From SAR86 cluster bacterium (lineage in GTDB: Bacteria > Pseudomonadota > Gammaproteobacteria > Magnimaribacterales > TMED112), in NCBI GenBank assembly GCA_003331635.1, contig QOPH01000002.1, forward strand, positions 68,721 through 132,720: a DNA stretch of 64,000 nucleotides. Direction: 5' to 3'. The stretch's first letter is position 1. Every line of letters starts with the position of its first letter. A program made the position numbers and the translations under genes. Positions 1 to 57,145 of this stretch are shown piece by piece. Under the pieces are notes generated by a model. The model saw nothing but the letters and a program-made list of their open reading frames with translations, was not told where the DNA came from and did not search any database.

Positions 1-441
1 AAAGTGGGTGAGGATCCAAGAGAAATGAATTTTTATTTGGGTAAGAAACAAATCCCATGGTTTGTTTCTCAAGATTATCAAGATTTATTTGCCAGTCTCT
101 CTTTAATAGAAAAGGCTGCAATTATGTATATTGAACTTGAGTCACTCTCAGAAAAAATTGAGAGTAAGAATATCTTCAATGAGAAAAATTTACTTGTAAT
201 TCCCTTTGAAAAATTAACTAAAGATCCAAACTTTTTCATGTCTGAAATTTGCAAAAGGCTATATATTGCAAATGACAAAAGTTACCAGAAACTTTACAAA
301 AAATTAAAACTACCAAGACCTTCTAACTCAATTGATGAATATAAAACTCTTAAAGATAAGATAATTCAACAAATTGAAAATCATTCTATAAAAAATAATT
401 TAGAGAACCTGATTGGTATTTATGAATCAAAATATTCATAA
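1..441 (+). CDS. 5'-truncated protein, possible sulfotransferase-family C-terminus
   Basis: Frame is open to the window edge; LLVIPFEKLTKDP...MSEICKRL resembles the 'v.YEdL..dP...l..i..fL' segment of sulfotransferases. Confidence 0.4.
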   Translation, partial: KVGEDPREMNFYLGKKQIPWFVSQDYQDLFASLSLIEKAAIMYIELESLSEKIESKNIFNEKNLLVIPFEKLTKDPNFFMSEICKRLYIANDKSYQKLYKKLKLPRPSNSIDEYKTLKDKIIQQIENHSIKNNLENLIGIYESKYS

Positions 442-2619: not shown

Positions 2620-2658
2620 CTTAGGTTTATTACAACTAGAGTATAATGTTCAGAATTT

Positions 2659-3408: not shown

Positions 3409-3409
3409 A

Positions 3410-4288
3410 ATGGCAAAAAAGGTATTAGTTGTAGGTGGCTCAGGTTTCTTAGGAAGCCATGTTGCAGATGAACTTACTGAGAAAGGTTATGAAGTAACTA
3501 TATTCGATCAGAAAAAATCAACCTGGATAAATGATAATCAGAAATTTATAGAAAGCGACTTACTTGACAGAGAACATGTAATTAAATGTCTAGAAGGATT
3601 TAACTTTGTCATTCATTTTGCAGGTATTGCAGATATTGGAGAATCAAAAGAAAAACCGCTTGAAACTATCGAAACAAATATTATTGGAACAGCAAATCTT
3701 CTTGAAGGATGTAGAAAAAATAAAATTGAAAGATTTATTTTTGCCTCATCTGTCTATGTTTTCAGCAAATATGGTTCCTTTTATGGAAAATCAAAACAGG
3801 CCTGTGAATTGCTGATTGAGGAATATCAAAATGAGTTTAGCCTCGACTATATTCATGTTAGATATGGCTCTTTATATGGTCCTAGAGCACAAGAATGGAA
3901 CGGTTTAAAAAAATACATATCAGAAATTATAAAAAATAAACAAATAGATTTTTCAGGAAATGGTGAGGAAAAGAGAGAATATATTCATGTTAAAGATGCT
4001 GCAATTATGACGGCAAGTCTTTTAGAGAGCGATGAAAAAAATATTGCTGTGAATATTACAGGCCATCAAGTTATAAGTACCTTAGATTTATTTAAATTAA
4101 TCTTTGAGGTGCTGCAACTTGAAGAGAAGATTAATTTATCAAAAGAATCAAATGTTGTTTCTCATTACAAAATTAGTCCATACAGTTTTCAACCTAAAGA
4201 ATCAAAGAAACTTGTTCCTAAAAAATTTATAGATATTGGCCAAGGAGTATTAGAAATAATTCATGAAATAGAGGATTCTAAGAATTAG
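3410..4288 (+). CDS. NAD-dependent nucleotide-sugar epimerase/dehydratase (extended SDR)
   Basis: GGSGFLG, FASS, YGKSK (YxxxK), YGP and REYIHVKD motifs. Confidence 0.88.
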   Translation: MAKKVLVVGGSGFLGSHVADELTEKGYEVTIFDQKKSTWINDNQKFIESDLLDREHVIKCLEGFNFVIHFAGIADIGESKEKPLETIETNIIGTANLLEGCRKNKIERFIFASSVYVFSKYGSFYGKSKQACELLIEEYQNEFSLDYIHVRYGSLYGPRAQEWNGLKKYISEIIKNKQIDFSGNGEEKREYIHVKDAAIMTASLLESDEKNIAVNITGHQVISTLDLFKLIFEVLQLEEKINLSKESNVVSHYKISPYSFQPKESKKLVPKKFIDIGQGVLEIIHEIEDSKN

Positions 4289-4742
4289 ATTTTCTTATTT
4301 CCAAAACATAATCACTACAAACACCAAAAATTTCTTCATCTAATTTTATTTTTGAAACTTCCATATCCCATTCAGGCATCACCAAAATAGAGTTTTTCAG
4401 AAGTTTTTTTCCAGGATAAACCCATACAAAATTCTTAGAAGTTAGTGTGTAGTCATCTTCTTGATGCCAAAAATAATTTGCATCTTGAAATAAGTTGATA
4501 TGTTTTAGTGCCTCTAAATCTTTACAATGAATCCAAAACCTATCAATGCTGCCAAGTAAAAAGTCTTTTGATATTGGATATTGATTATAATCATGTCCCA
4601 AGAAAAGGTTATCATTCTCATCACATCTAAGATCAATTTCAACATCGAAACCTTTTCCTAAAGCCTCATAAATTTGATCAGGATTATTTTCTTTATCTTT
4701 GTCAGGTCCTTGAAACAGACCCCGATGAGCTATGAATTTCAA
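4278..4742 (-). CDS. Small glycerophosphodiester phosphodiesterase-like (GDPD/PLC-like) protein
   Basis: IAHRG...EN...DVEIDL, LGHD, WIHCKD and VCSD motifs; 154 aa. Confidence 0.7.
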   Translation of the reverse strand: MKFIAHRGLFQGPDKDKENNPDQIYEALGKGFDVEIDLRCDENDNLFLGHDYNQYPISKDFLLGSIDRFWIHCKDLEALKHINLFQDANYFWHQEDDYTLTSKNFVWVYPGKKLLKNSILVMPEWDMEVSKIKLDEEIFGVCSDYVLEIRKSNS

Positions 4743-6109
4743 TTTTTAAAGTGATTATGATAAAAATCTAAATCTTCAGGTGTACCTAAGCCCCACATTT
4801 CTTCAACATCATAAACTTTTATCTTTTTCTTATCTTCAATAGCTTGATTAAAGACAGGGCAAACATAGAATTCGTTATTTACACGTATGTCCTTTTGTAT
4901 CATATCTTCAGCATATTTCACATAATCAGATCCTTTGCCCCAATAATAAACCCCAACAGTTGCATCTTCAGAAATCACTTGCTTTTCTGCAACTTCAGTT
5001 ACAAATCCGTCGTCACCTGATTTTGCATAAGACCATTTTGGATGAGTTGCCTTAAAAGTTAAGATTCCTCCGTCTACTTTGCTTTCAGACATGTTATACA
5101 TGGTGTTTGAAGCATTCCATTTTATATACTGATCAGAATTAGCTATAACTAATGGATTGTCATTGTTTATAAATTCTTTAGCTAATAGTGTTGTGCAAGC
5201 TGCACCCTCAGTAACTCCGCTTATTTCAATTACCTCACAATTAGGTCTTATGGCTTTCAAAAATGATTTCATATTATATTTTTCATTATGTTCTTTCTGA
5301 ATAATGAATATGAATCTACCCTCTATAGCTAACGACTCAACAACAACCTGTATCATTGGTTTGCCAAAAACTTCTATTAACGGTTTAGGAAATGTATATC
5401 CTGCTTGTGCAAACCTTGAGCCTGCACCAGCGCATGGAATAAGAACATTTATATTAGGATCAGTCCAAATTTGATTCATGCTGCTATTATCAAACTTTTT
5501 AAGATAATTTGGTAGATTCTTCTCGACAAGATCTCTAGGGTTTTTAACGGCAAATAGATTTGCTCCAGAATCTAGCGCTCCTTTTCTTCCAACAAAGGAA
5601 TCCTCAATTATTACTGTTTGTTTGGGTGTAACTCCTGCTTTTAGCATGCACTGCCAATACATCTCAGGATAAGGTTTGGGAAATTTTACATCATCATTAC
5701 TTACAAAATAATCGACATCATTTATTACATCAATTTTCTGGAGCATTTTTTCTACTGTTGATCGAATACTATTACTTGCGACCATTACCATATAATCCTT
5801 CGAAACCTCCTTAACGAGCTCTGTAATACCCTCAATTCTGATATCAATCTCATCAAGCACTTCAATAGTTCTTGTTTGCTTCTCTTCCCATATTTCTTTA
5901 AAAAACTTTTTATCTAAAGCTTTTTCTTCATTAAGAATCTCAAGCTTTCTTTTAGTTGGAAGTCCATCATATTTTTCAAGATGCTCCTCGTAAGTGATAG
6001 ATATATTAAATTTAGCTAATGATTTATTAAGTGCTTCGAAATGAAGCATTTTAGACTCCATTAGAACGCCATCAAGGTCGAAAATAACTAATATATCTTG
6101 GTTTTTCAT
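4739..6109 (-). CDS. Fusion of HAD phosphatase and sugar-phosphate nucleotidyltransferase-like domain
   Basis: N-half FDLDGVL, ASNS, KPYP, IEDS; C-half PCAGAGSRF..PKPLI, NSDQ, EK and LGTPEDL. Confidence 0.85.
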   Translation of the reverse strand: MKNQDILVIFDLDGVLMESKMLHFEALNKSLAKFNISITYEEHLEKYDGLPTKRKLEILNEEKALDKKFFKEIWEEKQTRTIEVLDEIDIRIEGITELVKEVSKDYMVMVASNSIRSTVEKMLQKIDVINDVDYFVSNDDVKFPKPYPEMYWQCMLKAGVTPKQTVIIEDSFVGRKGALDSGANLFAVKNPRDLVEKNLPNYLKKFDNSSMNQIWTDPNINVLIPCAGAGSRFAQAGYTFPKPLIEVFGKPMIQVVVESLAIEGRFIFIIQKEHNEKYNMKSFLKAIRPNCEVIEISGVTEGAACTTLLAKEFINNDNPLVIANSDQYIKWNASNTMYNMSESKVDGGILTFKATHPKWSYAKSGDDGFVTEVAEKQVISEDATVGVYYWGKGSDYVKYAEDMIQKDIRVNNEFYVCPVFNQAIEDKKKIKVYDVEEMWGLGTPEDLDFYHNHFKN

Positions 6110-6183
6110 AGAATTTGGTAATTATATTGAACTTTCTGATTAATACAATTTAATTAGAACTTAACATATAATATTCGACTATC

Positions 6184-7152
6184 GTGAAATTTGGTCTAAT
6201 TATCCAAGGCCCTCTATTATCAATAGGTAGAGGTGTAAGTTCGTACAAAAAAAAGGCAGAAACGAGCGAAAACGAAATCATTAAACACCAATGTGATGAA
6301 ACAATAATTTCTAATATTGAAAGCTATGGAAATTTATTCGAGAAAATAATTATTTCTACTTGGAAAGGTGAAAAGATCTCAAAAAAATTATCAGAATATA
6401 TAAAGTCTAAAAATAATGTTGAAATCTATCAATTTTCCAAAAGCGATGTTCCAGAGCTGCCAAAATTAAAAGTGCCATCTTCATGGAGCAAAGAGATGAG
6501 CTCTATTATGAATGTAAACAATAATTTAAATCAGTACACAGGATGTAAGTTGGGGTTGGTGAAATTAGAGAATATTGATTTTGTTATAAGAGTAAGGACT
6601 GATCAAGAAATTAATATACAAAAATTAAAGGAATTTATATTAGAAAACCCAAAAAAAATCGTAGTTCCTGGAATATTTTTTGAAAATTATATGTATCAAA
6701 TTGCGGATTTTTATTTTGGTGGTAGTTATAAAAATATTCTTAATTTTTTTGAAGCATGTTCAAAAAATATTTTTGATTTTTCCCCACATATTAATCCAAT
6801 ATCTTGTCTAGCAAATAGTAAATACCTTGATGAATTAAATATGAATTCTGAGGTACTTTATTATTCAAAAGAGTCTTTTCAGTACAAAATTATGCAAAAT
6901 TTCGTAATTAGTAAGGCATTGTTGCCAAGTCCCAGCAACATTTATCAAAAAATTTCTTGGCGAGGAGAAAAGGCTGGAACAGAATGGGAAAATCAAAATA
7001 AAAACATATACTTCTATGAAAATTTCTCAGATATTAAACAATTGGTATTACCTAAGTCTAATAGAATAATAGATTCGAAACTTTATAGCTCTAAATCAAA
7101 CTTTTTTACTAAAGTACTAAGAAGATTAATTAAATTAGAATTATTCAAATGA
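6184..7152 (+). CDS. WavE-like LPS synthesis protein
   Basis: GTG start; IIQGP, IIISTW, N..NQ...GL, RVRTD and ADFYFGG pattern typical of WavE. Confidence 0.55.
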   Translation: MKFGLIIQGPLLSIGRGVSSYKKKAETSENEIIKHQCDETIISNIESYGNLFEKIIISTWKGEKISKKLSEYIKSKNNVEIYQFSKSDVPELPKLKVPSSWSKEMSSIMNVNNNLNQYTGCKLGLVKLENIDFVIRVRTDQEINIQKLKEFILENPKKIVVPGIFFENYMYQIADFYFGGSYKNILNFFEACSKNIFDFSPHINPISCLANSKYLDELNMNSEVLYYSKESFQYKIMQNFVISKALLPSPSNIYQKISWRGEKAGTEWENQNKNIYFYENFSDIKQLVLPKSNRIIDSKLYSSKSNFFTKVLRRLIKLELFK

Positions 7153-8894
7153 AAGAATATTTAATACGTATTTACTCGTTACTTTATGAAGATAAAAAAA
7201 GACTGCCATTACTGCTTATACTGTTTTTACTTACTTCATTTTTTGATGCGTTAAGCCTAGCGATTTTATTTCCATTTATACAAATACTTGTGAATTTTCA
7301 GGATTTTCAATCTAGTTATGGATGGTTTTTTGAGAGCATAAACCTTACTTCGAAATCGGAAATTATTACATTCTTAGGCATTACACTTGTTTCACTATTC
7401 ATTATTAAAGCTTTTGCTTCAATCTTGGTTAACTGGGCCATTTTAAGAATAACCTACAATAGACAAGCAAAGATTAAGACATCTCTACTACATAAATACC
7501 TTAATATGCATTACAGAAAGTATATAGAAGGAAATAGTGCCAGATACATTCAGATGATTCAAACAATGAGTATGCAATTCATTAAAGTTTTACAAGGATT
7601 TTTAAGGCTTCTTTCAGATGGTCTTATTTTTCTTTCGATAGTAATTGTTTTAGCTATTGTTGAAGGCCCACTTTTAATTTATGTCGGCGGCATGATGTTA
7701 GTTCTTCTTTTAATATATGACATTTTTTTCAAAAAACTATTAGATAGCCAAAGTAGAGCTATTACTGACTCTAGTGTGCAAGTAACAAAAACAGTAAATG
7801 AATCAATCCAAGGTCTTAAAGAAATTAAGATTCTTGGAAAACAGAACTTTTTTGAAGATATTCTTAAGGAAAATGTAGACATTTATGCAAAAAATAATAT
7901 TTATGCTGATCTAATAAGAACACAGCCAAAACACATTATTGAGTTGATATTTGTAATTGCTTTTACTTTGGCAGTTGTGTTCTTTACTCCATTACAAAAC
8001 GATTTTCAGAGCTTAATACCCACACTTGGAGTATTTCTCTTTGCAGCAATTAGGTTAATGCCTACCCTTAATCAAATGCTTGCTTCTGTAAATGTTCTTA
8101 GAATAGGCTACTATCCCACAACCCTTCTTTTTGAGGACATGACTACAAAACAAGACCTTGAAGAAGATGATTATAAAGCAAATATCTTAAAAGATGGATT
8201 CACCTCCATGCTGTTGAAAAATGTATTTTTCTCATATAAAAATGACAAAGAGCATCAATTAAATGGTATTTCATTACAGGTTGATAAAAATAAATCGATA
8301 GGTCTTTTTGGTCAATCTGGATCAGGAAAAACAACTCTTGTCGACGTGATGTTAGGTCTACTAGAGCCAAGTAAAGGCGAGATTCATTTAAATAACAAAA
8401 TTGTAAAAAATAATAAAGAATTTAGAAATTTAGTGGCATATATTCCACAAGATATTTTCATAATTAACGACTCAGTAAAAAACAATATAACTTTAACTGG
8501 GAGGGATGAAGTTATTGATGATGTTTTATTAGAAGATGTAGTATTGAGATCAAGACTTAAAGAGGTTGTCAATAATCTCCCTGAGGGAATTAATACAAAT
8601 ATTGGAGAAAGAGGAGTAAAGCTTTCTGGAGGTCAAAAACAAAGAATTGCTATAGCTCGAGCACTCTATAACAAAAGAGAAGTTCTTATTATGGATGAGG
8701 CAACTAGTGCTTTGGATAATAATACGGAAAAAGAAATAATTGATGAAATAAGAAAGCTAAAAGGTAAAGTTACTATGGTAGTAATAGCCCATAGGCTTAC
8801 AACACTACAGCACTGTGATGAAATTTATGAAATTAGTAATGGAAGAATTAGCGAAAAATATAACTATGAAGACATAAGTAAAAGTAAAAAATAA
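7149..8894 (+). CDS. ABC transporter permease/ATPase fusion (PglK/MsbA-like glycan flippase)
   Basis: N-terminal TM helices; Walker A GQSGSGKT, LSGGQKQR signature, MDEATSALD and IAHR. Confidence 0.88.
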   Translation: MKEYLIRIYSLLYEDKKRLPLLLILFLLTSFFDALSLAILFPFIQILVNFQDFQSSYGWFFESINLTSKSEIITFLGITLVSLFIIKAFASILVNWAILRITYNRQAKIKTSLLHKYLNMHYRKYIEGNSARYIQMIQTMSMQFIKVLQGFLRLLSDGLIFLSIVIVLAIVEGPLLIYVGGMMLVLLLIYDIFFKKLLDSQSRAITDSSVQVTKTVNESIQGLKEIKILGKQNFFEDILKENVDIYAKNNIYADLIRTQPKHIIELIFVIAFTLAVVFFTPLQNDFQSLIPTLGVFLFAAIRLMPTLNQMLASVNVLRIGYYPTTLLFEDMTTKQDLEEDDYKANILKDGFTSMLLKNVFFSYKNDKEHQLNGISLQVDKNKSIGLFGQSGSGKTTLVDVMLGLLEPSKGEIHLNNKIVKNNKEFRNLVAYIPQDIFIINDSVKNNITLTGRDEVIDDVLLEDVVLRSRLKEVVNNLPEGINTNIGERGVKLSGGQKQRIAIARALYNKREVLIMDEATSALDNNTEKEIIDEIRKLKGKVTMVVIAHRLTTLQHCDEIYEISNGRISEKYNYEDISKSKK

Positions 8895-9763
8895 TGAGAG
8901 CCCTCTGTTACATTCAAAAAAAATACTATAAATGGAAGATTGATCTAATAGCAGATGATTTATTTAAAGGCGAAAAGAAAAATTGTGAAATTGAAATAGT
9001 TTATCCAGAAAATTTTTCATTAAATGCTCTTACCAAAAAGAAGAAATATGATTTTCTAGTTGGCTGCAATGTTGATGATTTTAAATTCCAGCTACTATAT
9101 AAATGTTTAAATTTCGACAAATTTATTACCTTTGATGAGGGGCAAAGAAGTATAAATGAAAATGATAAATATTATTCCAAGAGTTTTTCTTTTGAAAATC
9201 AAAAAAAGTTTTATTTTTTGAATAAAATTTGCGGCTTTCCATTACCATTTGGAAAGCTCTTAGAGAAAAGTGATAAACACTATTCGTTTTTTGATCCAAA
9301 AATTTTTAATCATCCTATTAAATCAACTACATTTCTTAAGAAGAAAAAAATTACGAAAAAGATTACAAAGATATTCTTTGGAGTAAGTAGCAATTGGGTT
9401 TTTAGTCATAGAGAAGATCTTTTGAATAAACCAAAAATCATAGAGAAGAAAATAAATGAAGCAGCTTTGAAAATAAATAAACTATGTCCTGATCTATATA
9501 TCCCCCACCCAAGAGAAGATGAGAGAATACTAGAATTACTTAATGAGAATATTACCATTGTAAATTGTCCAAATGGAAGTGAGGATTTTGTTAATAAATT
9601 AGCTTTAAGTAATGAAATTGAGGTATTTACAGAAAAATCAGGGGTAGTTTTTGATCTTAACAAAAAAATAAAAATTTCATTTATTGATTTATTTAATAGG
9701 TTTAGTAAATCCGAATACGACAAGTTTAAAAACCAATATAAAGAATTTAAGAAAAGCAATTAA
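8894..9763 (+). CDS. Putative CMP-sugar (sialyl/ulosonyl) transferase, GT52-like
   Basis: TFDEG (D/E-D/E-G motif) and YIPHPRE (HP motif), characteristic of bacterial sialyltransferases. Confidence 0.6.
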   Translation: MRALCYIQKKYYKWKIDLIADDLFKGEKKNCEIEIVYPENFSLNALTKKKKYDFLVGCNVDDFKFQLLYKCLNFDKFITFDEGQRSINENDKYYSKSFSFENQKKFYFLNKICGFPLPFGKLLEKSDKHYSFFDPKIFNHPIKSTTFLKKKKITKKITKIFFGVSSNWVFSHREDLLNKPKIIEKKINEAALKINKLCPDLYIPHPREDERILELLNENITIVNCPNGSEDFVNKLALSNEIEVFTEKSGVVFDLNKKIKISFIDLFNRFSKSEYDKFKNQYKEFKKSN

Positions 9764-9769
9764 ATCAAA

Positions 9770-10648
9770 ATGTTAGGTATAAATAGTAAAAAAAATATTC
9801 AATTTCCCCTACAAAAACAAGGCACACCAAGTGTAGTAGTTTTAGAGGACTTTTTTGATGAAGAATTTATTAGAGAAGCAAATAATGATTTTGAAGAGTT
9901 TATAAAAAAATCATCTGAGGTCGATTTTCTTAGTTTTGGAGAAACACGAAAAAATTTATCTTCAAGAGGGTCTAGGTATGAGGAAATTGTTAAATCGTCA
10001 AAATCTATCAGAAAAATTTGTGAATATATTAAGTCTGAGGAATTCTTTAAAAAATGTATTAAAAATTCGACTGAAGCATTCAATAAAAAAGGATTAAAAA
10101 TTAAAATTCCAAAATTCAATCAAAATTCCTATGACTCCTTAAGGTTTGCTAAAAAATTCTCTATCTTATGGGCGTTAAATAAGCTTCGTTTTGTTTTGTT
10201 TCAAATTCCCTATTTTGGAGACTTATTTGAGAAATTAAGTTTATCTTTGTTTGGAAACGTAGCTCCTACTATTGATGTTGCACAGTCTGAAATGGGTTAC
10301 GAAGTTGGAATGCATACTGATAGTAGATTTAAACTCATGGCTGGGATTATTTATTTAAATACAATAAAAGATGATAGTGATGGAGAAACAGAGTTTTGGA
10401 GCTCCGAAGGTCTTTCAAACCTTGAAAATCAAAAAAGATATCCAGATAAAGAGGATATAGTTAATTCCAAACTTTTGATGAGTGTTAAGCCTAAGGCCGG
10501 AAGAACTGTTTTATTCATAAACTCAAACGATTCTTATCATAGTGTTAAGAAATTTAAAGGAGATAAAAGGAACATCATATATTTTTCCTTTTCTGTACCT
10601 ATTTTAGATAATATCTGGGAAACAGACTTTAAAGTTAAATCTCTTTAA
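9770..10648 (+). CDS. 2-oxoglutarate/Fe(II)-dependent oxygenase
   Basis: HTD...IIYLN...G.TEFW...YHSV...KR, giving the HxD...H facial triad plus the 2OG-binding Arg. Confidence 0.8.
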   Translation: MLGINSKKNIQFPLQKQGTPSVVVLEDFFDEEFIREANNDFEEFIKKSSEVDFLSFGETRKNLSSRGSRYEEIVKSSKSIRKICEYIKSEEFFKKCIKNSTEAFNKKGLKIKIPKFNQNSYDSLRFAKKFSILWALNKLRFVLFQIPYFGDLFEKLSLSLFGNVAPTIDVAQSEMGYEVGMHTDSRFKLMAGIIYLNTIKDDSDGETEFWSSEGLSNLENQKRYPDKEDIVNSKLLMSVKPKAGRTVLFINSNDSYHSVKKFKGDKRNIIYFSFSVPILDNIWETDFKVKSL

Positions 10649-11471
10649 TTGCTTCAAGCATGTGTTGATGAACAATATCCTCTTTTCCTACCAGATTGTT
10701 TGCTAAACAAAAGCCTATGACTGCTTGCATAAGATTCATTCGTGAGCCGTCAATACAATTTAGAGAAAGAGAGCTTGCATCTCTTAATAGTTTTGAAGGA
10801 CTGTTTATATAATTAACATCGAATAACAGAGCTTCTTTGTTAATTGAACTTAATTGACTAGCTGAAAGAATAGAATCTTCGTTATTTCCATCTTTACCTA
10901 TAGAGGTGCAATTTATAAGAACATCGTAGTTTTCTATATCAAGATTAAGTGAACCATAATCTTTAAAATTCATCCCAAAATCTGTAAATAAACTAGAAAT
11001 TTCCTGATTTCTTCCATAAACATCTACATCAAAATTTTTATTTTGATTAGAAAGTTGATAGCACAATGATTTTGAAACTCCTCCAGTTCCAAGAATGCAT
11101 ACCCTTTGAATATCTAAATCTTTTTTTACGGAACTAATTGATTCGAGTAAAGCTAAGGTATCAGTATTAGCTGCTGTAAACTTGCCTTCAGAATTAAAGA
11201 AACAATTTTTTGGTTCAATAAAACTACCGCTATCATCTGCAAAATAATTTGCGACAACTTCTTTAAGTGGTGCTGCTACCGCTCCACCAATAAAATCAGT
11301 TTTTGTTATTTCTGAATCTAAGAATTCTATTGCATCACTTTCATGCTCTATATCTACAGCTGTCATTTCTGCATCAATATTGAGTGCATTAAAAGCAGCA
11401 TTCCATAAAATAGGAGAACGAGCACCCTTTGAAACATCTTTCCCTATTATTGCCGCCCTCTTCATCTTCAA
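10635..11471 (-). CDS. Shikimate dehydrogenase (AroE)-like oxidoreductase, divergent
   Basis: SPILWN, PLK, NTD, GTGGV, NCTSIG, DVNY and DG..M...Q motifs. Confidence 0.8.
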   Translation of the reverse strand: MKMKRAAIIGKDVSKGARSPILWNAAFNALNIDAEMTAVDIEHESDAIEFLDSEITKTDFIGGAVAAPLKEVVANYFADDSGSFIEPKNCFFNSEGKFTAANTDTLALLESISSVKKDLDIQRVCILGTGGVSKSLCYQLSNQNKNFDVDVYGRNQEISSLFTDFGMNFKDYGSLNLDIENYDVLINCTSIGKDGNNEDSILSASQLSSINKEALLFDVNYINSPSKLLRDASSLSLNCIDGSRMNLMQAVIGFCLANNLVGKEDIVHQHMLEAIKEI

Positions 11472-12343
11472 ATTACCTCTTTAGAAACTGCTTTTGCAAC
11501 GTTATCCATTTTTTTCATAAGAGAATTAAACGTATCGAAGTTGATTGGTTGCAAAGGATCGACTGCAGAATTTTCTGGATCTGGATGAACTTCTAACATT
11601 ATTGAATCAGCTCCAGATGCAATTGATGCAAGTGTCATTGGTTCAACCCAATCACGCCAGAAGGTTGCATGGGATGGGTCTGTAGCAACTGGAATATTTG
11701 TTATTTCTTGTGTTGCTGGAACAACTTGTAAATCCAATGAAAATCTAGAAGTTGCTCTATGAGTATGTGGAATTGACATTCCTCTCTCACATAAAATTAA
11801 TTTTGTACAGCCTTCCTTAAGAGCGTACTCAGCTGCTCCCAACCAATCTCTTAATGAGGCACCATAATGTCGTTTAAGCATTATAGGGAAACCTGTCTTT
11901 GCTGATTCTACTATTAGAGGATAATTTTGCATGTTTCTAGATCCAATCTGCAGGATATCCGTAGCATCGCATACTGCATCTAAATGTTTTTCTTCCATAA
12001 CTTCAGTTATGACAGGTATTTCAGCCTCCTCTCTGGCTGATTTTAACCACTTCAGACCATCTAAGCCTGTTTCTGTATATTTCTCATTTCTATAAGGAAA
12101 ACTTAAAGGTTTAAAAGCTCCACCTCTTAGAAAAGTAGCACCTGAAGCTTTTACTGACTTCGCAGTTTCTATAATGAGTTCTTCTGACTCAACCATGTTT
12201 GGACCTGCCATAACAGGAATTTTTTTACCATTAAAAACAACACCTGCTATTTCGAAAGGTTCTTTTGAAAAATTGGCTACTAAAGGTATTTTCGACTTTA
12301 TATCCTCTTCAGTTATATCTTTTCCGGGAAACTTGTTATACAT
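11468..12343 (-). CDS. Type I-beta DAHP synthase / KDO8P synthase family PEP-aldolase, divergent active site
   Basis: AGPN, LRGGAFKP, QIGSRNMQN, LCERG, DPSH and EVHPDP motifs; no regulatory domain. Confidence 0.85.
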   Translation of the reverse strand: MYNKFPGKDITEEDIKSKIPLVANFSKEPFEIAGVVFNGKKIPVMAGPNMVESEELIIETAKSVKASGATFLRGGAFKPLSFPYRNEKYTETGLDGLKWLKSAREEAEIPVITEVMEEKHLDAVCDATDILQIGSRNMQNYPLIVESAKTGFPIMLKRHYGASLRDWLGAAEYALKEGCTKLILCERGMSIPHTHRATSRFSLDLQVVPATQEITNIPVATDPSHATFWRDWVEPMTLASIASGADSIMLEVHPDPENSAVDPLQPINFDTFNSLMKKMDNVAKAVSKEVI

Positions 12344-13397
12344 CTTGCCCTAGTTTAGCCGATCTAACATCATCAGAAAAAGAAATTATTGAATTATTCT
12401 CCACAGATGAATATAAAGCATGAATATATTTTATTGAATCTAAACTGGATTCTGCACTTGTAGGAAAAATAATTTTTCCGGAATCATTAAAATTTTTACT
12501 AATTTCTTTAAGCATATGATGATGACCGTTACCATAACCATTTTTTACAGTTTCTGAGTTTTCTTTAAGTTCATTTGATAGCTCCACTCCATCAAGCTTA
12601 ACTCTTGTAAGCTCATTTAAAGCGATGCCTCCAACTGAAATTTGATATTTATCAGTTACCACTTCTAATGATGCTGAAAAATCTTCAGGTCTCACAGCGG
12701 TCGTCGCTTCAATTGTAAAAAATCCACCCTTTAAAAGTGTTCCAGACGCAACAAAAGTATCCTCAGCCTCAAGTTTATTATTGATATTTCCAGAGAAACC
12801 AGATAAAAATTGTGGAGGGCCAAATAAATAAAATAGAGCATCAATATGGTGTATTGCTTGTTGGCTAATTACTCCACCATCTGTTTTCCATCTCCCGTGC
12901 CATTCATCATTATAATAATCTTGAAACCTACACCACTGCAATTTAACACTTGCTGAAATGATTTTTCCAAAATCATTTTGTAAAAAGAGATTTTCAATAT
13001 ATTTAATTGGTTTATTCAATCTGTTTTGAAATACACCTCCGTAAAGAACATTTTTTTCTTTAGCAAGTGCCATATTTGCAACAACATCCTCTACGTTAAG
13101 ACCTATAGGTTTTTCACACAGAACATTAACTCCATTTTGTAAAAGTACCTTTGAGTTTTCTGCATGACTACCTGATGGAGTAGTAATTATGGCAATATCA
13201 ACATCATCTTTGCTTACCTCATCTATTGAAGCAAAGGTCTTACCTGAATTCTCTTTTTCCCATTTGCTCCTTGATTCTGCATACTGGTCCACACCTACAG
13301 AAAAAATATATTCATCAGATAAATTTTCTTTAATGACTTCAGCATAATGTTGAGCTGCTCGCCCTAAACCTATGAAAGCTAGTTTTAATTTACTCAA
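12336..13397 (-). CDS. Gfo/Idh/MocA NAD(P) oxidoreductase (WlbA/WbpB-like sugar dehydrogenase)
   Basis: IGLG, TPSGSH, CEKP, FQNR and W.R...YY...W.G.W..DGG....QAIHHID motifs. Confidence 0.82.
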   Translation of the reverse strand: MSKLKLAFIGLGRAAQHYAEVIKENLSDEYIFSVGVDQYAESRSKWEKENSGKTFASIDEVSKDDVDIAIITTPSGSHAENSKVLLQNGVNVLCEKPIGLNVEDVVANMALAKEKNVLYGGVFQNRLNKPIKYIENLFLQNDFGKIISASVKLQWCRFQDYYNDEWHGRWKTDGGVISQQAIHHIDALFYLFGPPQFLSGFSGNINNKLEAEDTFVASGTLLKGGFFTIEATTAVRPEDFSASLEVVTDKYQISVGGIALNELTRVKLDGVELSNELKENSETVKNGYGNGHHHMLKEISKNFNDSGKIIFPTSAESSLDSIKYIHALYSSVENNSIISFSDDVRSAKLGQDV

Positions 13398-14715
13398 ATT
13401 TCACCTCAAATTTACTCATTTCTTCTTCAGTGCTTATTTCAATCATATCAGCTTGATTAAGTTGGGGAATAAGATTTACCCTTTTTTTTAAAAAATTCCC
13501 ATTCCTTAAATCTGATGCATTAAGTGTGCACCCAAAACCAAATGGACAAATCATCACTGATGATTCCTCCAATTCTCTTGGCAATAGCTGATTATTTATT
13601 GCTATTTCGCTTTCCTCTCCTCTTGTAAAACATATTCTTTTTTCTTCATGGCTATAAAGTGTTGGTAGAAATGCTGATTCGTAAAAACTATCTACCAAAT
13701 TTTTAAAACTACTCTGATCTCTAAAAGGGTAGTTAACAGAAGAAAGAGTAATGGAATTAGGTATATATTTTTGATTTTCAAAATCTAAAAGACAATCCTT
13801 TAATACATCATTTAAGGAGGTGTCATAGTCTTTTGTGCCTCTATCAAAAATATCGAGTCCAGATTCTTCTGCTTGCTTCAAAGCCTTTTTATCGATTCCA
13901 CAAAATACTATGTCTTCAAAAACCGAACTTTTTTTTGCATCACTTATAACTTTTCGCAAAAGACCAAGACGAAAGTCGTCATATTTTTCTCTATCAAAAA
14001 TAATAAGTATGTCTTTTGTTTTTCCTTTATATTCACAAAGATTTTCACTCTTAAATTCGTCTGCTTCCATTATTTGAACAATTTTTTTAGCTCTTTTTTT
14101 ATCTGCTTCCTGATGTATGCCATGATGATGAAAAACTACTGCATCCGGCTCATATACAATCTTGAGTTTATTCTTTATGACTTCTTTTCCCCAAATTCTG
14201 TCCTCAATATTAGTCACTTCATCATCAAAACGAAATTTCTCCCAGGTTTTTCTTGTGAATGCTGAGTTGGCATTGTGAAAAAAAGAATCCTTTTCCTGAA
14301 CTCTCTTATCATTTCCAAATGTCAAAAATAAATCCCTTTTATCGAGATAATGTGATGAACTTGTGGGTACTTGCTTTCCATAAACACCCGCAATTTTTTC
14401 ATCTTCTAAATCATTTACTAAATTTTTAAGCCAATCTTTCTCTTTGGGAATGCAGTGCGCAGACAAACATATCAGATAATCTCCTGAAGAGTTTTCAATT
14501 CCATAATTAATTGCGTTTCCTGGTTTAAATTCTTTGAGGGTAACTACTTTTACATTCCATTCTTTTGCTTTTTCAACAGTCTTGTCTGTGGAACAGTTAT
14601 CTACAATAATTACCTCAAAATTTTTGTAATCCTGTTTGAAAATTGCATTTAAACAAATAGAAATCCATTTTTCTTCATTCTTCGTTCTAATTATTATGGA
14701 AGCTTTTTTCATCAT
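13390..14715 (-). CDS. GT2 glycosyltransferase fused to a degenerate NeuA-like cytidylyltransferase domain
   Basis: N-terminal SIIIRTKNEE, VDNCSTD, FHNANSA, IED; C-terminal AKKSSVFEDIV...NYPFRD...IEIST resembles the NeuA fold. Confidence 0.7.
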   Translation of the reverse strand: MMKKASIIIRTKNEEKWISICLNAIFKQDYKNFEVIIVDNCSTDKTVEKAKEWNVKVVTLKEFKPGNAINYGIENSSGDYLICLSAHCIPKEKDWLKNLVNDLEDEKIAGVYGKQVPTSSSHYLDKRDLFLTFGNDKRVQEKDSFFHNANSAFTRKTWEKFRFDDEVTNIEDRIWGKEVIKNKLKIVYEPDAVVFHHHGIHQEADKKRAKKIVQIMEADEFKSENLCEYKGKTKDILIIFDREKYDDFRLGLLRKVISDAKKSSVFEDIVFCGIDKKALKQAEESGLDIFDRGTKDYDTSLNDVLKDCLLDFENQKYIPNSITLSSVNYPFRDQSSFKNLVDSFYESAFLPTLYSHEEKRICFTRGEESEIAINNQLLPRELEESSVMICPFGFGCTLNASDLRNGNFLKKRVNLIPQLNQADMIEISTEEEMSKFEVKFE

Positions 14716-15446
14716 ATTTTCTCTGGTATCGGAGGTAAATTTTCAAAATCATTCTCTTTGATCCATTCGGCTGCCTTATTAGCTAAAAATAAATCAAAAT
14801 CGTTATGTATGTCTAATGCTGAAAAGCTTCTATTATCTGTTATCAGCTTAACATTGTCACCAATTCTACGCCCATTCCTCCAAAGGTTTGAACGAGATGC
14901 ACAAGCTAACCCAGTATCTTCCCTGTATGATTTTCTTCTAACTTGTCTACTCTCATAAATACTCATCCATTCTTTAAGACGTGTTGGATTATTATCAATA
15001 ACCTCCCAAAAGTTTTTGTGAGTTTCATTAGCGACGAATACACTCTCCAATTCATTATTTTCTTCAAGTGCATCTATAGCATGATCTATCCATCCATCTC
15101 TTCTGAATAAATCAGTACATGTTAAAAAAACGCATATATCGAAGCTTTGTTTAAATATTTTTTCTGACTCCAATAAAGAATACTTTAATGTCTCCTCAGT
15201 GGTTGTTAAATCACCTGAAACATCACTAGTACGCAAAAAGGGAACTTCTGCACCATATTTTAATGCAACCTCTCTTATGTCTTTATCGTCTGTAGAAACA
15301 ACTATTTTCGAAAGTTTTTTAGATCTTTTAGCTGCCTCGATTGGCCATGCAATTAAAGGATGACCCAAGAATTCTCTTAAATTCTTTTTCTCAAGCCCCT
15401 TAGAGCCTCCCCTTGCAGGGATTATTGCTATACTATTACTCTGCAT
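14712..15446 (-). CDS. Acylneuraminate (CMP-ulosonate) cytidylyltransferase, NeuA-like
   Basis: IIPARGGSKGLEKKN, VSTDD, EVPFLR and LDIH..FD motifs. Confidence 0.88.
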   Translation of the reverse strand: MQSNSIAIIPARGGSKGLEKKNLREFLGHPLIAWPIEAAKRSKKLSKIVVSTDDKDIREVALKYGAEVPFLRTSDVSGDLTTTEETLKYSLLESEKIFKQSFDICVFLTCTDLFRRDGWIDHAIDALEENNELESVFVANETHKNFWEVIDNNPTRLKEWMSIYESRQVRRKSYREDTGLACASRSNLWRNGRRIGDNVKLITDNRSFSALDIHNDFDLFLANKAAEWIKENDFENLPPIPEKI

Positions 15447-15462
15447 TAAAGGTAGATTTTAC

Positions 15463-16629
15463 ATGATAAGTATAGTAATTCCATCTAGAAATGATGACAT
15501 TGAAGTTTTTCAAAAAACTATTAACGCAATAAAAAAACAAACTGTATTGCCAAAAGAAATTATTATTGTTGATTCAAGTACTGATAATTCAATAAAAAAC
15601 TTTTTACAAAAGCAAAAATTAAAGCTGATTAATCTTATTTACAAAAAAATTGATGGGTCATTTGCAGGAAAAAGTACAAATATTGGAATGTCTCTTGCAA
15701 CACAAAAGTTTATTGGTTTGCTTGATACCAAAACAATTCCAAATGATACATGGATAGAAAAATACATAAAACAATTGGAAAGAGATAACTCAGATTTGAT
15801 TTTTGGAAATACAAAATTCTTCTCTAAAAATAGATTTCAAAAAATACTAAGAATTCTTTCATATGGTGATGCATCACATGAAACAGTACCTGGAACTATA
15901 TTTAAACGCAGTAAATTCGGCAAAAAAATGTTTTTCATTGAAAATGTCAGATCATCATATGATATTGAGTGGAGGGAGAGACAAAAAACTCTTTTGAAAA
16001 CTTCTTTGGGTAATGAGATTGAAATAGAGTATGGAGAATTTCCAAATTCATTCTTGGATGCTGCAAAAAAATACTTTATTTATAGTTTTTATACTGCAAT
16101 TGTAAATGTTCAAAAGGATGCGAAAGATCTATATTTATCAATTTTTATAATTTTATCCGCATTAGTCATACCAAGATGGAATTTTTTTCTTGAAGGCTGG
16201 GATGAGAATCCGCTCTATATTGCAGATGTAACAAAAAAATACTTTTTATCACTATTGGTAATTTTTTTGAGTTTTTTAATTGCAACAAGATTTTTTCCTA
16301 AGCAAGTAGAAAATAGGCTTCCATTTATTACTCTTAAATACACAGTTTTTCTTTTTATCTTTCTTTCTGTTTTTAATTGGAATGCAGTAGTAGCTGACTG
16401 GGTAGAGGATGCTGTTTTTTACATTCCACATATCACGAAAATTTTTGTGGTTTTAGTTTTGATTTCCTCTGTATTGGTTAGGGGACTTTTTAAACCAGTA
16501 AGCAACAAAGTTAAATTAAATTATCTTCTTCCCTTTAGGTGGTTATTTATTGGCACTATTGGGCTAATACTCGATATTGTTAAAGCTCCTGGTTACATAA
16601 TAGGTTCCTTGATTTCAAAATTTAGATAA
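15463..16629 (+). CDS. GT2 glycosyltransferase with C-terminal transmembrane helices
   Basis: SIVIPSRND, IIIVDSSTD, LLD; hydrophobic C-terminal half. Confidence 0.75.
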   Translation: MISIVIPSRNDDIEVFQKTINAIKKQTVLPKEIIIVDSSTDNSIKNFLQKQKLKLINLIYKKIDGSFAGKSTNIGMSLATQKFIGLLDTKTIPNDTWIEKYIKQLERDNSDLIFGNTKFFSKNRFQKILRILSYGDASHETVPGTIFKRSKFGKKMFFIENVRSSYDIEWRERQKTLLKTSLGNEIEIEYGEFPNSFLDAAKKYFIYSFYTAIVNVQKDAKDLYLSIFIILSALVIPRWNFFLEGWDENPLYIADVTKKYFLSLLVIFLSFLIATRFFPKQVENRLPFITLKYTVFLFIFLSVFNWNAVVADWVEDAVFYIPHITKIFVVLVLISSVLVRGLFKPVSNKVKLNYLLPFRWLFIGTIGLILDIVKAPGYIIGSLISKFR

Positions 16630-17344
16630 AACTTTTTATATCAAGAAATTCTGATTCAATGTTGTAAGATTTTGAAATTCTTTTTGGCATTTTTAATGCT
16701 TTAATTTTCAAGCTCTTTGAAAATGAATTCATAAATCTTAAGAAATTAAGTGGGCTCCCATTTAAGTCATTTTTATACTCTTGTAATTGTTGGATTATGG
16801 AATCTTTCACAATAAAAATACTCTGATCTGCTAGCCCCTCGTCCCAATTTATTTCTGCTCTATTATCAATTGAGAGATGAATATCATTAACAAACTCAGA
16901 ATTTTCTTTGAGCACATATTTTACATATGGATTTTTATCAAATATTAAGGGTACAAAAATATCAGCATCCTCAGAAATATTTAAATGCTTTTCAAATGCA
17001 GATATTGAATCAATAATAAAAGTATCGCCCCAACACACAAATATTAGACTACCATTTGCTTTAAAGCTACTTAACCCATCTAAAACAGCTTGTCCATCTC
17101 CTGAACCTGACTCACTTTCAATGAATTTAATCTTTGATAAAAAATGATCCTCAATATTTTTGTTGAACAATTCTTTTGAAGATTTATCTTTAGGTATTGG
17201 TATTATTATTGTTTCAAAATACTTATTAACTTCCTCTAAAAGGTAATTTATCGCTGCTCTACCATTAATTTTTAGTAGTTGCTTTGGTACTGATGATTTC
17301 ATTCTTGTTGATTTTCCAGCACATGGAATAATAATTTTTCTCAA
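16622..17344 (-). CDS. Nucleotidyltransferase (GlmU-N/IspD-like NTP transferase)
   Basis: IIIPCAGKSTRMKS..PKQL, GSGDG and WGD motifs; TTG at 17344 gives a TTGA overlap with the upstream stop (ORF track start is 17359). Confidence 0.75.
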   Translation of the reverse strand: MRKIIIPCAGKSTRMKSSVPKQLLKINGRAAINYLLEEVNKYFETIIIPIPKDKSSKELFNKNIEDHFLSKIKFIESESGSGDGQAVLDGLSSFKANGSLIFVCWGDTFIIDSISAFEKHLNISEDADIFVPLIFDKNPYVKYVLKENSEFVNDIHLSIDNRAEINWDEGLADQSIFIVKDSIIQQLQEYKNDLNGSPLNFLRFMNSFSKSLKIKALKMPKRISKSYNIESEFLDIKSFI

Positions 17345-27028: not shown

Positions 27029-27898
27029 TTATTCAGAATCTTTTACTACTGCCCTACCTAGAAGTTTCTCCCAATCTTTTTCTGGTCTAACTTCTAAATT
27101 AGTTTTCCATGCACCCTTGAGAACATTTAAGTCTATATTCTTCATATTGCCAAAATGTATTAATGCCTGAATATCTTTAGGAAAACAGCTTCCACCAAAG
27201 CCATATTTTCCATCATGTCCCGGAACATTTGTATGAGAGTGACCTACTCTTCCATCTCTCACAAAACCCTCAACTACTGTATCCCAATCAGCATCAACTT
27301 CATCTGAAAGTTTTTTCATTTCGTTTAAAAAAGACACCTTTGTTGCAAAAAAAGTATTGCATACATATTTGATTAACTCGGCAGTTTCGTAGTTTGTTTC
27401 TATAATAGAAACAGATTGTCCAAACCTATCTCGGTAGAGTTCAGCTACCTCTTTTGTATCTCTTTCAGAGCCTCCTAAGACATATCTACTTTGAGTTATA
27501 AAATCAAACGATGCACTTCTTTCAGTTAAAAATTCAGGATTAAATACAAATCTCAGCTTTGGAAATTTATCTTGAATCATTCTTGATGTTCCTGGAACAA
27601 TTGTTGATCTCAAGAGAAATATTGTATTTTTTGCTGAATTCTCATTTATCTGATTATCAATACTAGATATACAATCAAGAACCATATCAAGGTTTATTGA
27701 ACCATCTTCATTACTTGGAGTTGGGACTGAAATAAATACAAATTTTGAATCATTTACAACTTCATCAAGAGTGTTTATTGTACGTGTGGGATCCTTATCG
27801 AAGATTTTTACCTCTGACTCATATCCAGTATGTGGAGAGAAACCCTGAGCTACAGCTGTCCCCACAAACCCTTTTCCTATAATGCCTATCTTATTCAT
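27029..27898 (-). CDS. UDP-glucose/GDP-mannose dehydrogenase family protein, short form
   Basis: GKGFVG, VPTP, RSTIVPGT, NPEFL, AELIKY..N and GFGGSCFPKD (catalytic Cys); lacks the C-terminal domain. Confidence 0.85.
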   Translation of the reverse strand: MNKIGIIGKGFVGTAVAQGFSPHTGYESEVKIFDKDPTRTINTLDEVVNDSKFVFISVPTPSNEDGSINLDMVLDCISSIDNQINENSAKNTIFLLRSTIVPGTSRMIQDKFPKLRFVFNPEFLTERSASFDFITQSRYVLGGSERDTKEVAELYRDRFGQSVSIIETNYETAELIKYVCNTFFATKVSFLNEMKKLSDEVDADWDTVVEGFVRDGRVGHSHTNVPGHDGKYGFGGSCFPKDIQALIHFGNMKNIDLNVLKGAWKTNLEVRPEKDWEKLLGRAVVKDSE

Positions 27899-56092: not shown

Positions 56093-57145
56093 ATGATGTA
56101 TATAACTGACAATAGCAGAATTTTATCAAGAGAAGAGCTTTCGACTCCTGAAGAGATTACAAATGAGATACCTCTTGATAAAGAGTCCTCAAAATTAATA
56201 TTCGGAGCAAGAAACAATATAAGCAAAATTCTCCATGGTCTAGATGACAGAATTATTGCTGTTGTAGGTCCATGCTCTATCCATGATCCAAAGGCAGCAA
56301 TTGATTATGCAAAAAAATTGAAGCCACTTGCTGAAAAAATTGAAAATGAAGTAGTTGTTATCATGCGAGTATATTTTGAAAAACCTCGTACGACTGTAGG
56401 ATGGAAAGGTTTGATTAATGATCCAAGAATAGATAATTCTTTTAAAATAAATGAAGGGCTAAGAGTTGCTAGGAAGGTCTTGAGAGATATAACGAATGTA
56501 GGTATTCCTGCGGGAACTGAATTTTTAGATCTAATATCTCCACAATATATATCAGACCTTGTTAGTTGGGGAGCTATTGGTGCAAGAACGTCTGAAAGTC
56601 AAGTTCACAGAGAGCTTACATCAGGTCTTTCATGTCCTGTTGGAATAAAAAACTCAACAAATGGAGAGTTTAAAGCAGCTATTGATGGAATGAAGTCTGC
56701 ACAATATCAACATGTTTTTTTAGGAACTACTAAGCAAGGAAAGGTTGCTATATTCAAAACCTCAGGAAATGATGACACACATATAATTTTAAGAGGTGGC
56801 AAGCAGCCAAATTATGAGGCTGAAGATATCCAAAAATGCCTAGAAGAACTTAAAAAATCAGAAGTAAATCAATGTATTATGGTTGATTTTAGTCATGGTA
56901 ACAGCCAAAAAATTCCTGGTAATCAAAAAAAGGTAAGCCAGTCAGTTTGTAAACAAATTGAGACTGGTAATAAAAATATTGTAGGTGTAATGATTGAAAG
57001 TAATATTGAAGAAGGTAATCAAAAAATATCTGATAAAATGGAGTATGGAAAAAGCATTACTGATGCTTGTCTTGGATGGGAAGATACTGAAATTTTATTA
57101 AATGATCTGTCCTCTTCAGTAGAAAAGAGAAGAAATATTGGATAA
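56093..57145 (+). CDS. aroG: DAHP synthase, type I-alpha (housekeeping)
   Basis: VGPCSIHD, RVYFEKPRTTVGWKG, IGARTSESQ.HR, DFSHGNS and SITDAC motifs. Confidence 0.93.
   Translation: MMYITDNSRILSREELSTPEEITNEIPLDKESSKLIFGARNNISKILHGLDDRIIAVVGPCSIHDPKAAIDYAKKLKPLAEKIENEVVVIMRVYFEKPRTTVGWKGLINDPRIDNSFKINEGLRVARKVLRDITNVGIPAGTEFLDLISPQYISDLVSWGAIGARTSESQVHRELTSGLSCPVGIKNSTNGEFKAAIDGMKSAQYQHVFLGTTKQGKVAIFKTSGNDDTHIILRGGKQPNYEAEDIQKCLEELKKSEVNQCIMVDFSHGNSQKIPGNQKKVSQSVCKQIETGNKNIVGVMIESNIEEGNQKISDKMEYGKSITDACLGWEDTEILLNDLSSSVEKRRNIG

Follow-up and report, generated by a model that had tools for sequence, protein, structure and literature searches.

Why does a glycan island of a SAR86 cluster bacterium carry a gene whose label is that of the enzyme opening the biosynthesis of aromatic amino acids? 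The question was raised by a 64,000-nt stretch of contig QOPH01000002.1 (GCA_003331635.1), hereafter called the window, whose positions serve as coordinates throughout. The gene is the following:

11468..12343, minus strand: synthase derived from the type I-beta synthases that make the 7-phosphate of 3-deoxy-D-arabino-heptulosonate (DAH7PS, or DAHP synthases); an open reading frame (ORF) of 291 aa, open throughout, with an ATG start; PF00793, E = 4e-50

The answer that we favor, and consider likely, is that it encodes a phosphoenolpyruvate (PEP)-dependent synthase of an undescribed 3-deoxy-ulosonic acid that is activated with cytidine monophosphate (CMP) for the cell surface, that its operon also provides redox tailoring, and that the enzyme is probably metal-independent. 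The sequences place it in a distinct clade that appears to have split from type I-beta DAH7PS and whose members are predicted to be alpha-carboxyketose synthases, i.e., aldol-type, PEP-dependent enzymes.

The first-pass annotation, made from the letters alone, had pointed to AGPNMVES where I-beta enzymes have AGPCSVE, to an altered KPR loop, and to the retention of DPSH, EVH and a later Asp, and each of these features was found as described. AGPNMVES occupies aa 46-53 (12185-12208), with the Asn49 codon AAC at 12197-12199, while FKPLSFPYRNEKY occupies aa 77-89 (12077-12115), with the Leu80 codon TTA at 12104-12106; DPSH lies at aa 222-225, EVH at aa 251-253, and Asp262 falls within VDPLQ. The best solved relative of the synthase was 1VS1 from Aeropyrum pernix (HMMER, E = 6e-58). 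Both substitutions were upheld in HMMER alignments to this I-beta DAH7PS and to that of Pyrococcus furiosus (1ZCO): Asn49 aligned with the metal-binding Cys in AGPCSVES, and Leu80 took the place of the Arg in FKPRTSPY, which binds the phosphate of erythrose 4-phosphate (E4P), with FKPLSFPYRNEKY laid over FKPRTSPYS---FQG. By the ligand lists given for I-beta enzymes in PMC6362186, the metal ligands C36/H206/E232/D243 correspond to N49/H225/E251/D262 of the synthase, the PEP ligands R60/K65/S119/R120/K141/R171 to R73/K78/S135/R136/K157/R187, and the E4P ligands R67/T68/D243, of which the first two positions bind the phosphate, to L80/S81/D262. The Cys-His-Glu-Asp metal site is incomplete, with Asn49 for Cys and His225, Glu251 and Asp262 kept. 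The set of PEP ligands is complete, and R73, K78, R136, K157 and R187 were invariant in a 19-sequence alignment that included both Asn and Cys forms of the clade. The Arg/Thr pair of the KPR(T/S) loop is replaced by Leu80/Ser81, followed by Phe82 where the family has Ser.

These losses are not the only changes around the aldose site. Relative to canonical enzymes, the synthase has two 3-residue insertions, one after KPLSFPY and the other forming a PHTH loop (P192-H-T-H195) after ERG; the KRG of canonical enzymes has become KRH (His159), an Arg has been gained at position 165, and an N-terminal KD..D motif is conserved in the clade. The residues invariant in the 19-sequence alignment also included K8, D9, D14, P79, F82, P83, R158, H159, R165, E186 and G188, then H193, T194 and H195 of the 3-residue insert, and H225, H253 and D262. 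From where their loops sit, at the C-terminal end of strand 5 and of strand 6, we infer that H159, R165, H193 and H195 line the aldose site. Because loss of the Arg is accompanied by clade-wide KRH, Arg165 and the PHTH insert, these gains suggest that the aldose pocket was rebuilt and not merely lost. An AlphaFold2 (AF2) model made from the clade alignment was a confident TIM barrel (predicted local distance difference test, pLDDT, 89.8) whose best fold match was 1VS1 (TM-score 0.81/0.87, superposition 1.8 Å). Averaged over blocks of 10 residues, and leaving aside the first ten, pLDDT fell under 70 just at aa 81-90 (63) and aa 191-200 (60), which are the two remodeled loops. Set beside the unregulated I-beta DAH7PS (1VS1, 1ZCO and the core of Thermotoga maritima 1RZM), the synthase thus has the same fold and size (TM-score 0.81-0.90, 36-42% identity), identical PEP ligands and the metal-site His, Glu and Asp, but differs in Cys to Asn, KPRTS to KPLSF, KRG to KRH, Arg165, the two inserts and KD..D, and is an accessory glycan-island gene outside the aromatic pathway.

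The NCBIfam models for I-beta DAHP synthases all scored under their cut-offs (NF006421, 295.6 versus 335; TIGR01361, 258.1 versus 267.75; NF009933, 244.6 versus 486), and those for kdsA, the synthase that makes the 8-phosphate of 3-deoxy-D-manno-octulosonate (KDO8PS), were far under (TIGR01362, 88.2 versus 314; NF003543, 89.1 versus 242), the KANRS motif being absent. As for NeuB, PF03102 matched marginally (23.1 bits, cut-off 22.1), the PseI model TIGR03586 reached 16.2 versus 340, and a domain scan found no SAF domain in the synthase.

The synthase is the fourth of five minus-strand genes whose stops and starts overlap, and the five are translationally coupled. Its partners, from the first gene of the operon to the last, are as follows:

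14712..15446, minus strand: nonulosonic-acid-type cytidylyltransferase, 244 aa, first gene of the operon; PF02348, E = 1e-25
13390..14715, minus strand: fusion of a glycosyltransferase family 2 (GT2) domain with a part resembling CMP-ulosonate synthetases, 441 aa; PF00535, E = 1e-30, aa 6-156
12336..13397, minus strand: Gfo/Idh/MocA oxidoreductase (Gfo), 353 aa; PF01408/PF02894; nearest to nucleotide-sugar 3-dehydrogenases
10635..11471, minus strand: AroE-family (shikimate-dehydrogenase-like) oxidoreductase, 278 aa; PF08501/PF01488

The linkage of the synthase, within this operon, to a CTP_transf_3 cytidylyltransferase and a glycosyltransferase is the genomic setting that would mark a cassette for CMP-ulosonic-acid biosynthesis. 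The cytidylyltransferase scored 119.7 bits against the PseF model TIGR03584 (cut-off 205.7); its best solved relative was the CMP-pseudaminic acid (CMP-Pse) synthetase of Aeromonas (9FTB, E = 3.9e-24), then CMP-N-acetylneuraminic acid (CMP-Neu5Ac) and CMP-Kdn synthetases, with KdsB structures at E = 1.5e-6. The C-terminal 226 aa of the GT2 fusion had no Pfam match; their language-model (atlas) features resembled CTP_transf_3 clusters (0.96), and an AF2 model of modest confidence (pLDDT 66.6) found CMP-Pse, CMP-Kdn and CMP-Neu5Ac synthetases as its best folds in the Protein Data Bank. The nucleotide motif is degenerate in this copy (LIIFDREK versus AIIPxRGK in relatives). The best solved relatives of Gfo were 3Q2I (E = 1.6e-39) and 3Q2K (E = 2e-35), which are labeled 'dehydrogenase' and 'oxidoreductase' and which we take to be structures of WlbA (Thoden and Holden, 2011), a 3-dehydrogenase of the uridine diphosphate (UDP) sugar UDP-N-acetylglucosaminuronic acid (UDP-GlcNAcA). 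Against the NCBIfam model of UDP-N-acetylglucosamine 3-dehydrogenase, Gfo gave E = 1.4e-13, under cut-off, and EKP and other Gfo motifs were invariant in 14 cassette copies. The start of the AroE-like gene overlaps the stop of the synthase by 4 nt. Its product was far under the cut-off of aroE models (104.8 versus 200.2) and matched 7COK, the 5-ketofructose reductase and a keto-sugar reductase of the family (E = 1.7e-11). Of 20 cassette copies, 19 retained the catalytic Lys70 and Asp104, and 18 had a GARSP motif in the substrate loop.

This cassette was compared across 21 loci with flanking genes, comprising the window, six metagenome contigs, 12 Pelagibacterales genomes and two genomes of the same phylum (L numbers are our locus labels). 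The six contigs (L010-L015) were the clade members kept among 80 loci from a search of metagenome contigs, in which the rest were ordinary Cys/Arg DAH7PS and one, L017, was unreadable. An AroE-like gene lay at most three genes from the synthase in all 21 loci and directly adjoined it in 19; L015, the sole Cys-type locus seen, has its AroE-like gene downstream. A Gfo relative and a cytidylyltransferase were each present in 16 of the 21, and the GT2 fusion in 13. Among the five loci without Gfo, four (L012, L014, L015 and L114) are contigs 2.6-6.2 kb long, and the fifth, L119, spans 19.9 kb. NeuB-type synthases occurred in six of the 21 (L105, L107, L108, L111, L113 and L115). In L120, from a 4.8-Mb genome of the same phylum, the synthase, AroE-like, cytidylyltransferase and Gfo genes sit between a flagellin gene (6036-7190) and a gene for a 697-aa TPR protein (13629-15722), and because these genes flank the cassette, flagellin glycosylation is suggested in that host. 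Other recurrent genes in the Pelagibacterales loci L105-L108 and L116 encode a radical-SAM/SPASM protein, a second Gfo-like oxidoreductase and an unannotated 373-aa protein, with an enolase-superfamily protein, an FMN-dependent dehydrogenase or a DHDPS/NanA-like aldolase in some of them; a carbamoyltransferase gene was found in L110 and L013.

We then asked whether the synthase could be the organism's ordinary DAHP or KDO8P synthase. The source genome (1.0 Mb, 7 contigs, ~30% G+C, 91% complete) was found to have three PF00793 genes, namely the synthase, KdsA and an AroG-like gene, the last of which lies in the window outside the cassette:

56093..57145, plus strand: housekeeping type I-alpha DAHP synthase (AroG-like), 350 aa; PF00793, 303 bits; motifs GPCSIHD and KPRT

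KdsA, between pyrG and eno on a different contig, carries GGVNVIES and KANRS. The genome has two AroE genes, of which the second, on contig 4, outscores the AroE-like gene of the cassette, and four CTP_transf_3 genes. Since the genome has its own AroG, KdsA and second AroE, the synthase is not the housekeeping enzyme, and its earlier description as a paralogue was borne out. Copies with 98-99% amino acid identity were found in four of 29 other species of the genus (L006-L009), in which 11-14% of synonymous sites differ. The cassette was missing from the other 25 species searched, and no copy of the synthase was found in 31 genomes from the rest of the order (0/31), a patchy pattern of the kind shown by flexible islands. 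Clade members were present in 13 of 301 Pelagibacterales genomes sampled and in 2 among 400 further genomes from the phylum to which the window belongs; plasmid (27 records) and phage (10 records) matches were all under 45% identity, and neither collection held a clade member. Against the four same-genus copies, a crude ratio of nonsynonymous to synonymous divergence (pN/pS) of 0.04-0.07 was obtained at a pS of 0.11-0.14; the synthase is therefore under strong purifying selection. The operon was also detected in RNA data. Seventeen runs recorded as RNA contained at least 41% of the words sampled from it, and contigs from four marine RNA libraries (four studies, at least 95% identity) covered 25-28 of 30 operon bins, where covered bins record presence in RNA libraries only and uncovered bins carry no meaning. 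These contigs span the AroE-like/synthase, synthase/Gfo and Gfo/GT2 junctions.

To what extent are the two substitutions fixed? In a nearest-protein search of 5.8 billion proteins, GPN and FKPL[ST]FPY were kept in all of the 120 best matches, which shared 67-99% identity with the synthase; source names among them included Candidatus Pelagibacter, Pelagibacteraceae, Neomarinimicrobiota and Pseudomonadota, and every labeled protein carried the DAHP synthase label. GPN/KPLS in ordinary housekeeping DAHP synthases, which the first-pass annotation had held would speak against its proposal, was absent from everything examined. When 1.84 billion cluster representatives were scanned with HMMER, 6013 matched; among the best 150 of these, both motif patterns with Cys and Arg were found in 102 and only one of the two patterns, with its Cys or Arg, in 27. 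A small set kept the Cys and had KP[LCA]TFP. Around one such Cys-type relative, P0121, the 120 nearest proteins, whose names include Nitrospira sp. and Nitrospirota, had KP[LM]TFP in 120, the Cys in 118, KRH in 117 and PHTH in 113. There is, then, a large sister group that retains the Cys but has KP[LM]TFP. A quick-search IQ-TREE phylogeny (LG+C20 PMSF) was computed for 51 rows, made up of 16 sequences without the Arg, 34 canonical sequences of 240-320 residues chosen by random draw, and the organism's own KdsA as outgroup; the trait columns retained were a handful of the 287 alignment columns. Nine Asn and six Cys forms made up a single clade (SH-aLRT 99), within which the Asn forms were nested as one clade (SH-aLRT 99); P0127, with Cys and Cys-Thr-Tyr in the two motifs, fell outside. 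The tree placed the synthase clade within the I-beta radiation, and a FastTree phylogeny of 163 rows agreed. Given this nesting of the Asn forms among the Cys forms, a root outside the clade would imply that the Arg was lost, and the pocket otherwise altered, before Cys changed to Asn. Full-text literature searches, whose reach did not extend to supplements and most subscription journals, turned up no account of the clade, and term look-ups in SAR11 pangenome papers and the SugarBase preprint found nothing on it.

What reaction might such an enzyme catalyze? That the aldose differs from the usual one, as had been proposed from the sequence, is well supported, because the gene is a paralogue, the substitutions are fixed clade-wide and the clade is found in glycan islands. 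The synthase would condense PEP with an aldose other than E4P, bound outside the canonical phosphate site, to yield a 3-deoxy-2-ulosonic acid. Gfo and the AroE-like enzyme would carry out redox tailoring of its pyranose ring, most simply oxidation at C4 followed by re-reduction (epimerization); the cytidylyltransferase would make the CMP-sugar, and the GT2 fusion or a GT52-like enzyme would transfer it to lipopolysaccharide, capsule or, in other hosts, flagellin. AroE-family enzymes act on the C3-OH of quinate and shikimate. The pyranose of a 3-deoxy-2-ulosonic acid can be regarded as an oxa-analogue of quinate, in which C2 (OH, COOH) would match C1 of quinate, the C3 methylene C2, and the C4-OH the C3-OH; by the same analogy, the ulosonic C4 would also correspond to C3 of a hexopyranosyl nucleotide, the site of oxidation by WlbA. 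As C4 matches the target carbons of both the AroE family and WlbA, its epimerization is proposed as the simplest scheme, and the inversion is assigned to the oxidoreductases since the PEP condensation itself cannot invert that center. [quoted passage not shown]

By analogy with Asn-type KDO8P synthases, the synthase would probably not need a divalent metal. PMC3052366 describes Cys to Asn as the required switch to metal independence in KDO8P synthases, and an absolute metal requirement is still stated for DAHPS in a 2025 article (PMC12531865). Metal independence of the synthase is plausible.

Of the alternatives, the one that survives best, though we judge it unlikely, keeps the core claim of the favored reading and differs in the substrate and the order of steps. 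As in pseudaminic and legionaminic acid (Pse/Leg) pathways, Gfo and the AroE-like enzyme would tailor a nucleoside diphosphate (NDP)-hexose or -hexuronate by 3-oxidation and re-reduction, the nucleotide would be removed, and the synthase would stand in for NeuB on a free six-carbon aldose to give a nonulosonic or nonulosaric acid. Such an order would suit a cytidylyltransferase of the nine-carbon nonulosonic acid (NulO) type rather than the KdsB type, a synthase without the phosphate Arg in a core without a phosphatase, and the UDP-sugar dehydrogenase genes of the same islands (27029..27898 in the window; 528-1706 in L011). It would also suit the affinity of Gfo to 3Q2I and 3Q2K, the WbpB/WlbA reaction being given as C-3' oxidation of UDP-GlcNAcA in PMC10622841, which lists Thoden and Holden (2011) as reference 10. 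However, the core has no hydrolase of the NeuC/PseG/LegG type, and the sole candidate for nucleotide removal, the GT2 fusion, is absent from 8 of the 21 loci. The tightest link is that between the synthase and the AroE-like gene, which in L119 have neither Gfo nor cytidylyltransferase nearby, and AroE-family enzymes have no known activity on nucleotide sugars. Moreover, NeuB-type synthases co-occur with the cassette (the six loci named above, and L004) and are not replaced by it.

Much less probable is a DAH7PS that still uses E4P and, with the AroE-like enzyme, feeds a dedicated shikimate/quinate branch that borrows AroB and AroD and ends in a decoration that is carbocyclic or aromatic instead of a sugar acid. 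A DAHP-synthase homologue paired with a homologue of shikimate dehydrogenase does mimic the shikimate pathway, and dedicated DAHP synthases of secondary metabolism exist (the BagF/FevY model matched with E = 1.5e-54, far under cut-off). Against this, the E4P-phosphate Arg is replaced in all clade members examined, the substrate loop of the AroE-like enzyme is changed (GARSP), the conserved partners are CMP-ulosonate-type cytidylyltransferases and glycosyltransferases, and no AroB- or AroD-like family was among the gene families common to several of the 21 loci. Scarcely credible is a spare or degenerating isozyme of DAHP/KDO8P synthase, or a remnant without catalysis, whose substitutions reflect loss of function: two residues held essential in characterized DAH7PS are indeed missing and the NCBIfam scores are under cut-off, but with a pN/pS of 0.04-0.07, the same motifs in every one of 120 relatives drawn from several phyla, all PEP ligands intact, conserved synteny and a confident TIM-barrel model, the pseudogene and housekeeping-isozyme readings were both rejected.

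The reading of a CMP-activated 3-deoxy-ulosonic acid made by this operon has its own difficulties, and the following points weigh against it. In a 7.2-kb Pelagibacteraceae contig, L004, the one locus returned by a genome-contig search with the single protein and very specific peptide patterns, the synthase adjoins genes for a NeuB-type synthase and for a cytidylyltransferase, and neither an AroE-like nor a Gfo gene is present. In L119, from a 5-Mb genome, no cassette gene other than the synthase and AroE-like pair lies within ~9 kb, and the pair has a histidine kinase gene and a PhyH dioxygenase gene for neighbors. No phosphatase or NDP-sugar hydrolase homologue was found in the conserved cassette core of the 21 loci, so that on paper a Kdo-like and a Pse/Leg-like route would both be incomplete. 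The sequence of reactions, and the choice of C4 as the site where the two oxidoreductases act, are drawn from analogy. The clade-invariant H159, R165, H193 and H195 could form a new anion site and hold a phosphate at a new position, in which case the substrate would be phosphorylated; the suggestion of a non-phosphorylated or carboxylated aldose is therefore insecure and was not established, as a phosphate or a carboxylate could bind at the new place. The RNA-library contigs give a weak hint that the operon is expressed, as carried-over DNA may be their source. Finally, KDO8PS in which Cys alone was changed to Asn fell short in PMC3052366, where good activity required further alterations to the Asp loop.

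Comparison with two established systems shows what the cassette shares with each. Class I (Asn-type, metal-independent) KDO8PS, such as E. coli KdsA and the organism's own KdsA, have the Asn in G-x-N-x-x-E-S with the His, Glu and Asp kept, a one-residue likeness and not membership. KDO8PS and the clade each include Cys and Asn forms, and the synthase, like KDO8PS, would presumably serve to make a CMP-activated 3-deoxy-ulosonic acid for a surface glycan. The synthase shares 20-23% identity with solved KDO8PS in fold alignments, matches them by sequence at E = 1e-17 or weaker, and has no KANRS motif and no KdsD or KdsC partners, and the cassette cytidylyltransferase is of the NulO type, unlike the KdsB type of KDO8PS systems. 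With the NeuB clusters for Pse, Leg and Neu, the cassette shares a PEP-aldose synthase (predicted in our case) adjoining a CMP-NulO-type cytidylyltransferase in flexible islands for glycans or flagellin glycosylation, and both aldoses probably lack the canonical phosphate anchor. The enzymes nevertheless belong to different families, and the partners here are AroE-like and Gfo proteins instead of PseB/C/H/G or LegB/C/H/G.

The glycan island around the operon spans at least 27 kb and also encodes an ABC exporter, a GT52-like enzyme, a Wzz-like protein, several GT1, GT2 and GT4 glycosyltransferases and an asparagine-synthase-like amidotransferase. Two plus-strand genes at 8894-10648, for the GT52 enzyme and a 2-oxoglutarate (2OG)-Fe(II) oxygenase, converge on the end of the operon, and neither had an NCBIfam match. 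The first of them is:

8894..9763, plus strand: GT52 (sialyltransferase-family) glycosyltransferase, convergent with the operon; PF07922, E = 8e-9

By its position, the GT52-like enzyme is a candidate user of the CMP-sugar. KdoO hydroxylates Kdo, and the 2OG-Fe(II) oxygenase could, by analogy, hydroxylate the sugar. Elsewhere in the window (413-4288, plus strand), a second acid-activating module encodes a 6-phosphogluconolactonase-like protein, a PGDH-like D-2-hydroxyacid dehydrogenase, a HAD phosphatase, a KdsB-subfamily cytidylyltransferase (NF003952, 236.5 bits, over the cut-off of 193) and an NAD epimerase; with the exception of the HAD phosphatase, these families adjoin the cassette in the Pelagibacterales locus L110 (13941-17946). 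Two fusions were also found on the minus strand, a 456-aa protein joining a beta-phosphoglucomutase-like HAD domain to a sugar-1-phosphate nucleotidyltransferase (4739-6109) and, in the glycan island, a 730-aa GT2 plus CofD/YvcK-like protein of unusual architecture (17341-19533). The 289-aa UDP-glucose/GDP-mannose dehydrogenase ORF (27029-27898, minus strand) has an N-terminal domain match that begins at profile position 69, and it may be truncated or have a miscalled start.

Databases name thousands of clade proteins '3-deoxy-7-phosphoheptulonate synthase', and metabolic reconstructions of marine and uncultured organisms therefore count a shikimate enzyme that is probably something else. If the favored reading is true, the alpha-carboxyketose synthase superfamily would gain a fourth functional branch beside DAH7PS, KDO8PS and NeuB, and the clade would offer a natural Cys-to-Asn series for studying the role of the metal in these enzymes. 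A link of the product to Dha, the activated form of which is given as still unidentified in a 2012 review (PMC3355719), is speculation. The surface chemistry of plankton in the ocean would also be extended by a new CMP-activated acidic sugar. Hypervariable glycan islands are thought to govern phage susceptibility. We put forward tentatively, as a possibility somewhat short of an even chance, that the synthase is the first natural metal-independent member of the DAH7PS lineage, the outcome of a second, independent Cys-to-Asn switch parallel to that of KDO8PS, and that it makes an undescribed sugar acid displayed on the surface of some of the most abundant marine bacteria (the Pelagibacterales and the streamlined 1-Mb lineage of the window), where it may be relevant to recognition by phages and grazers.

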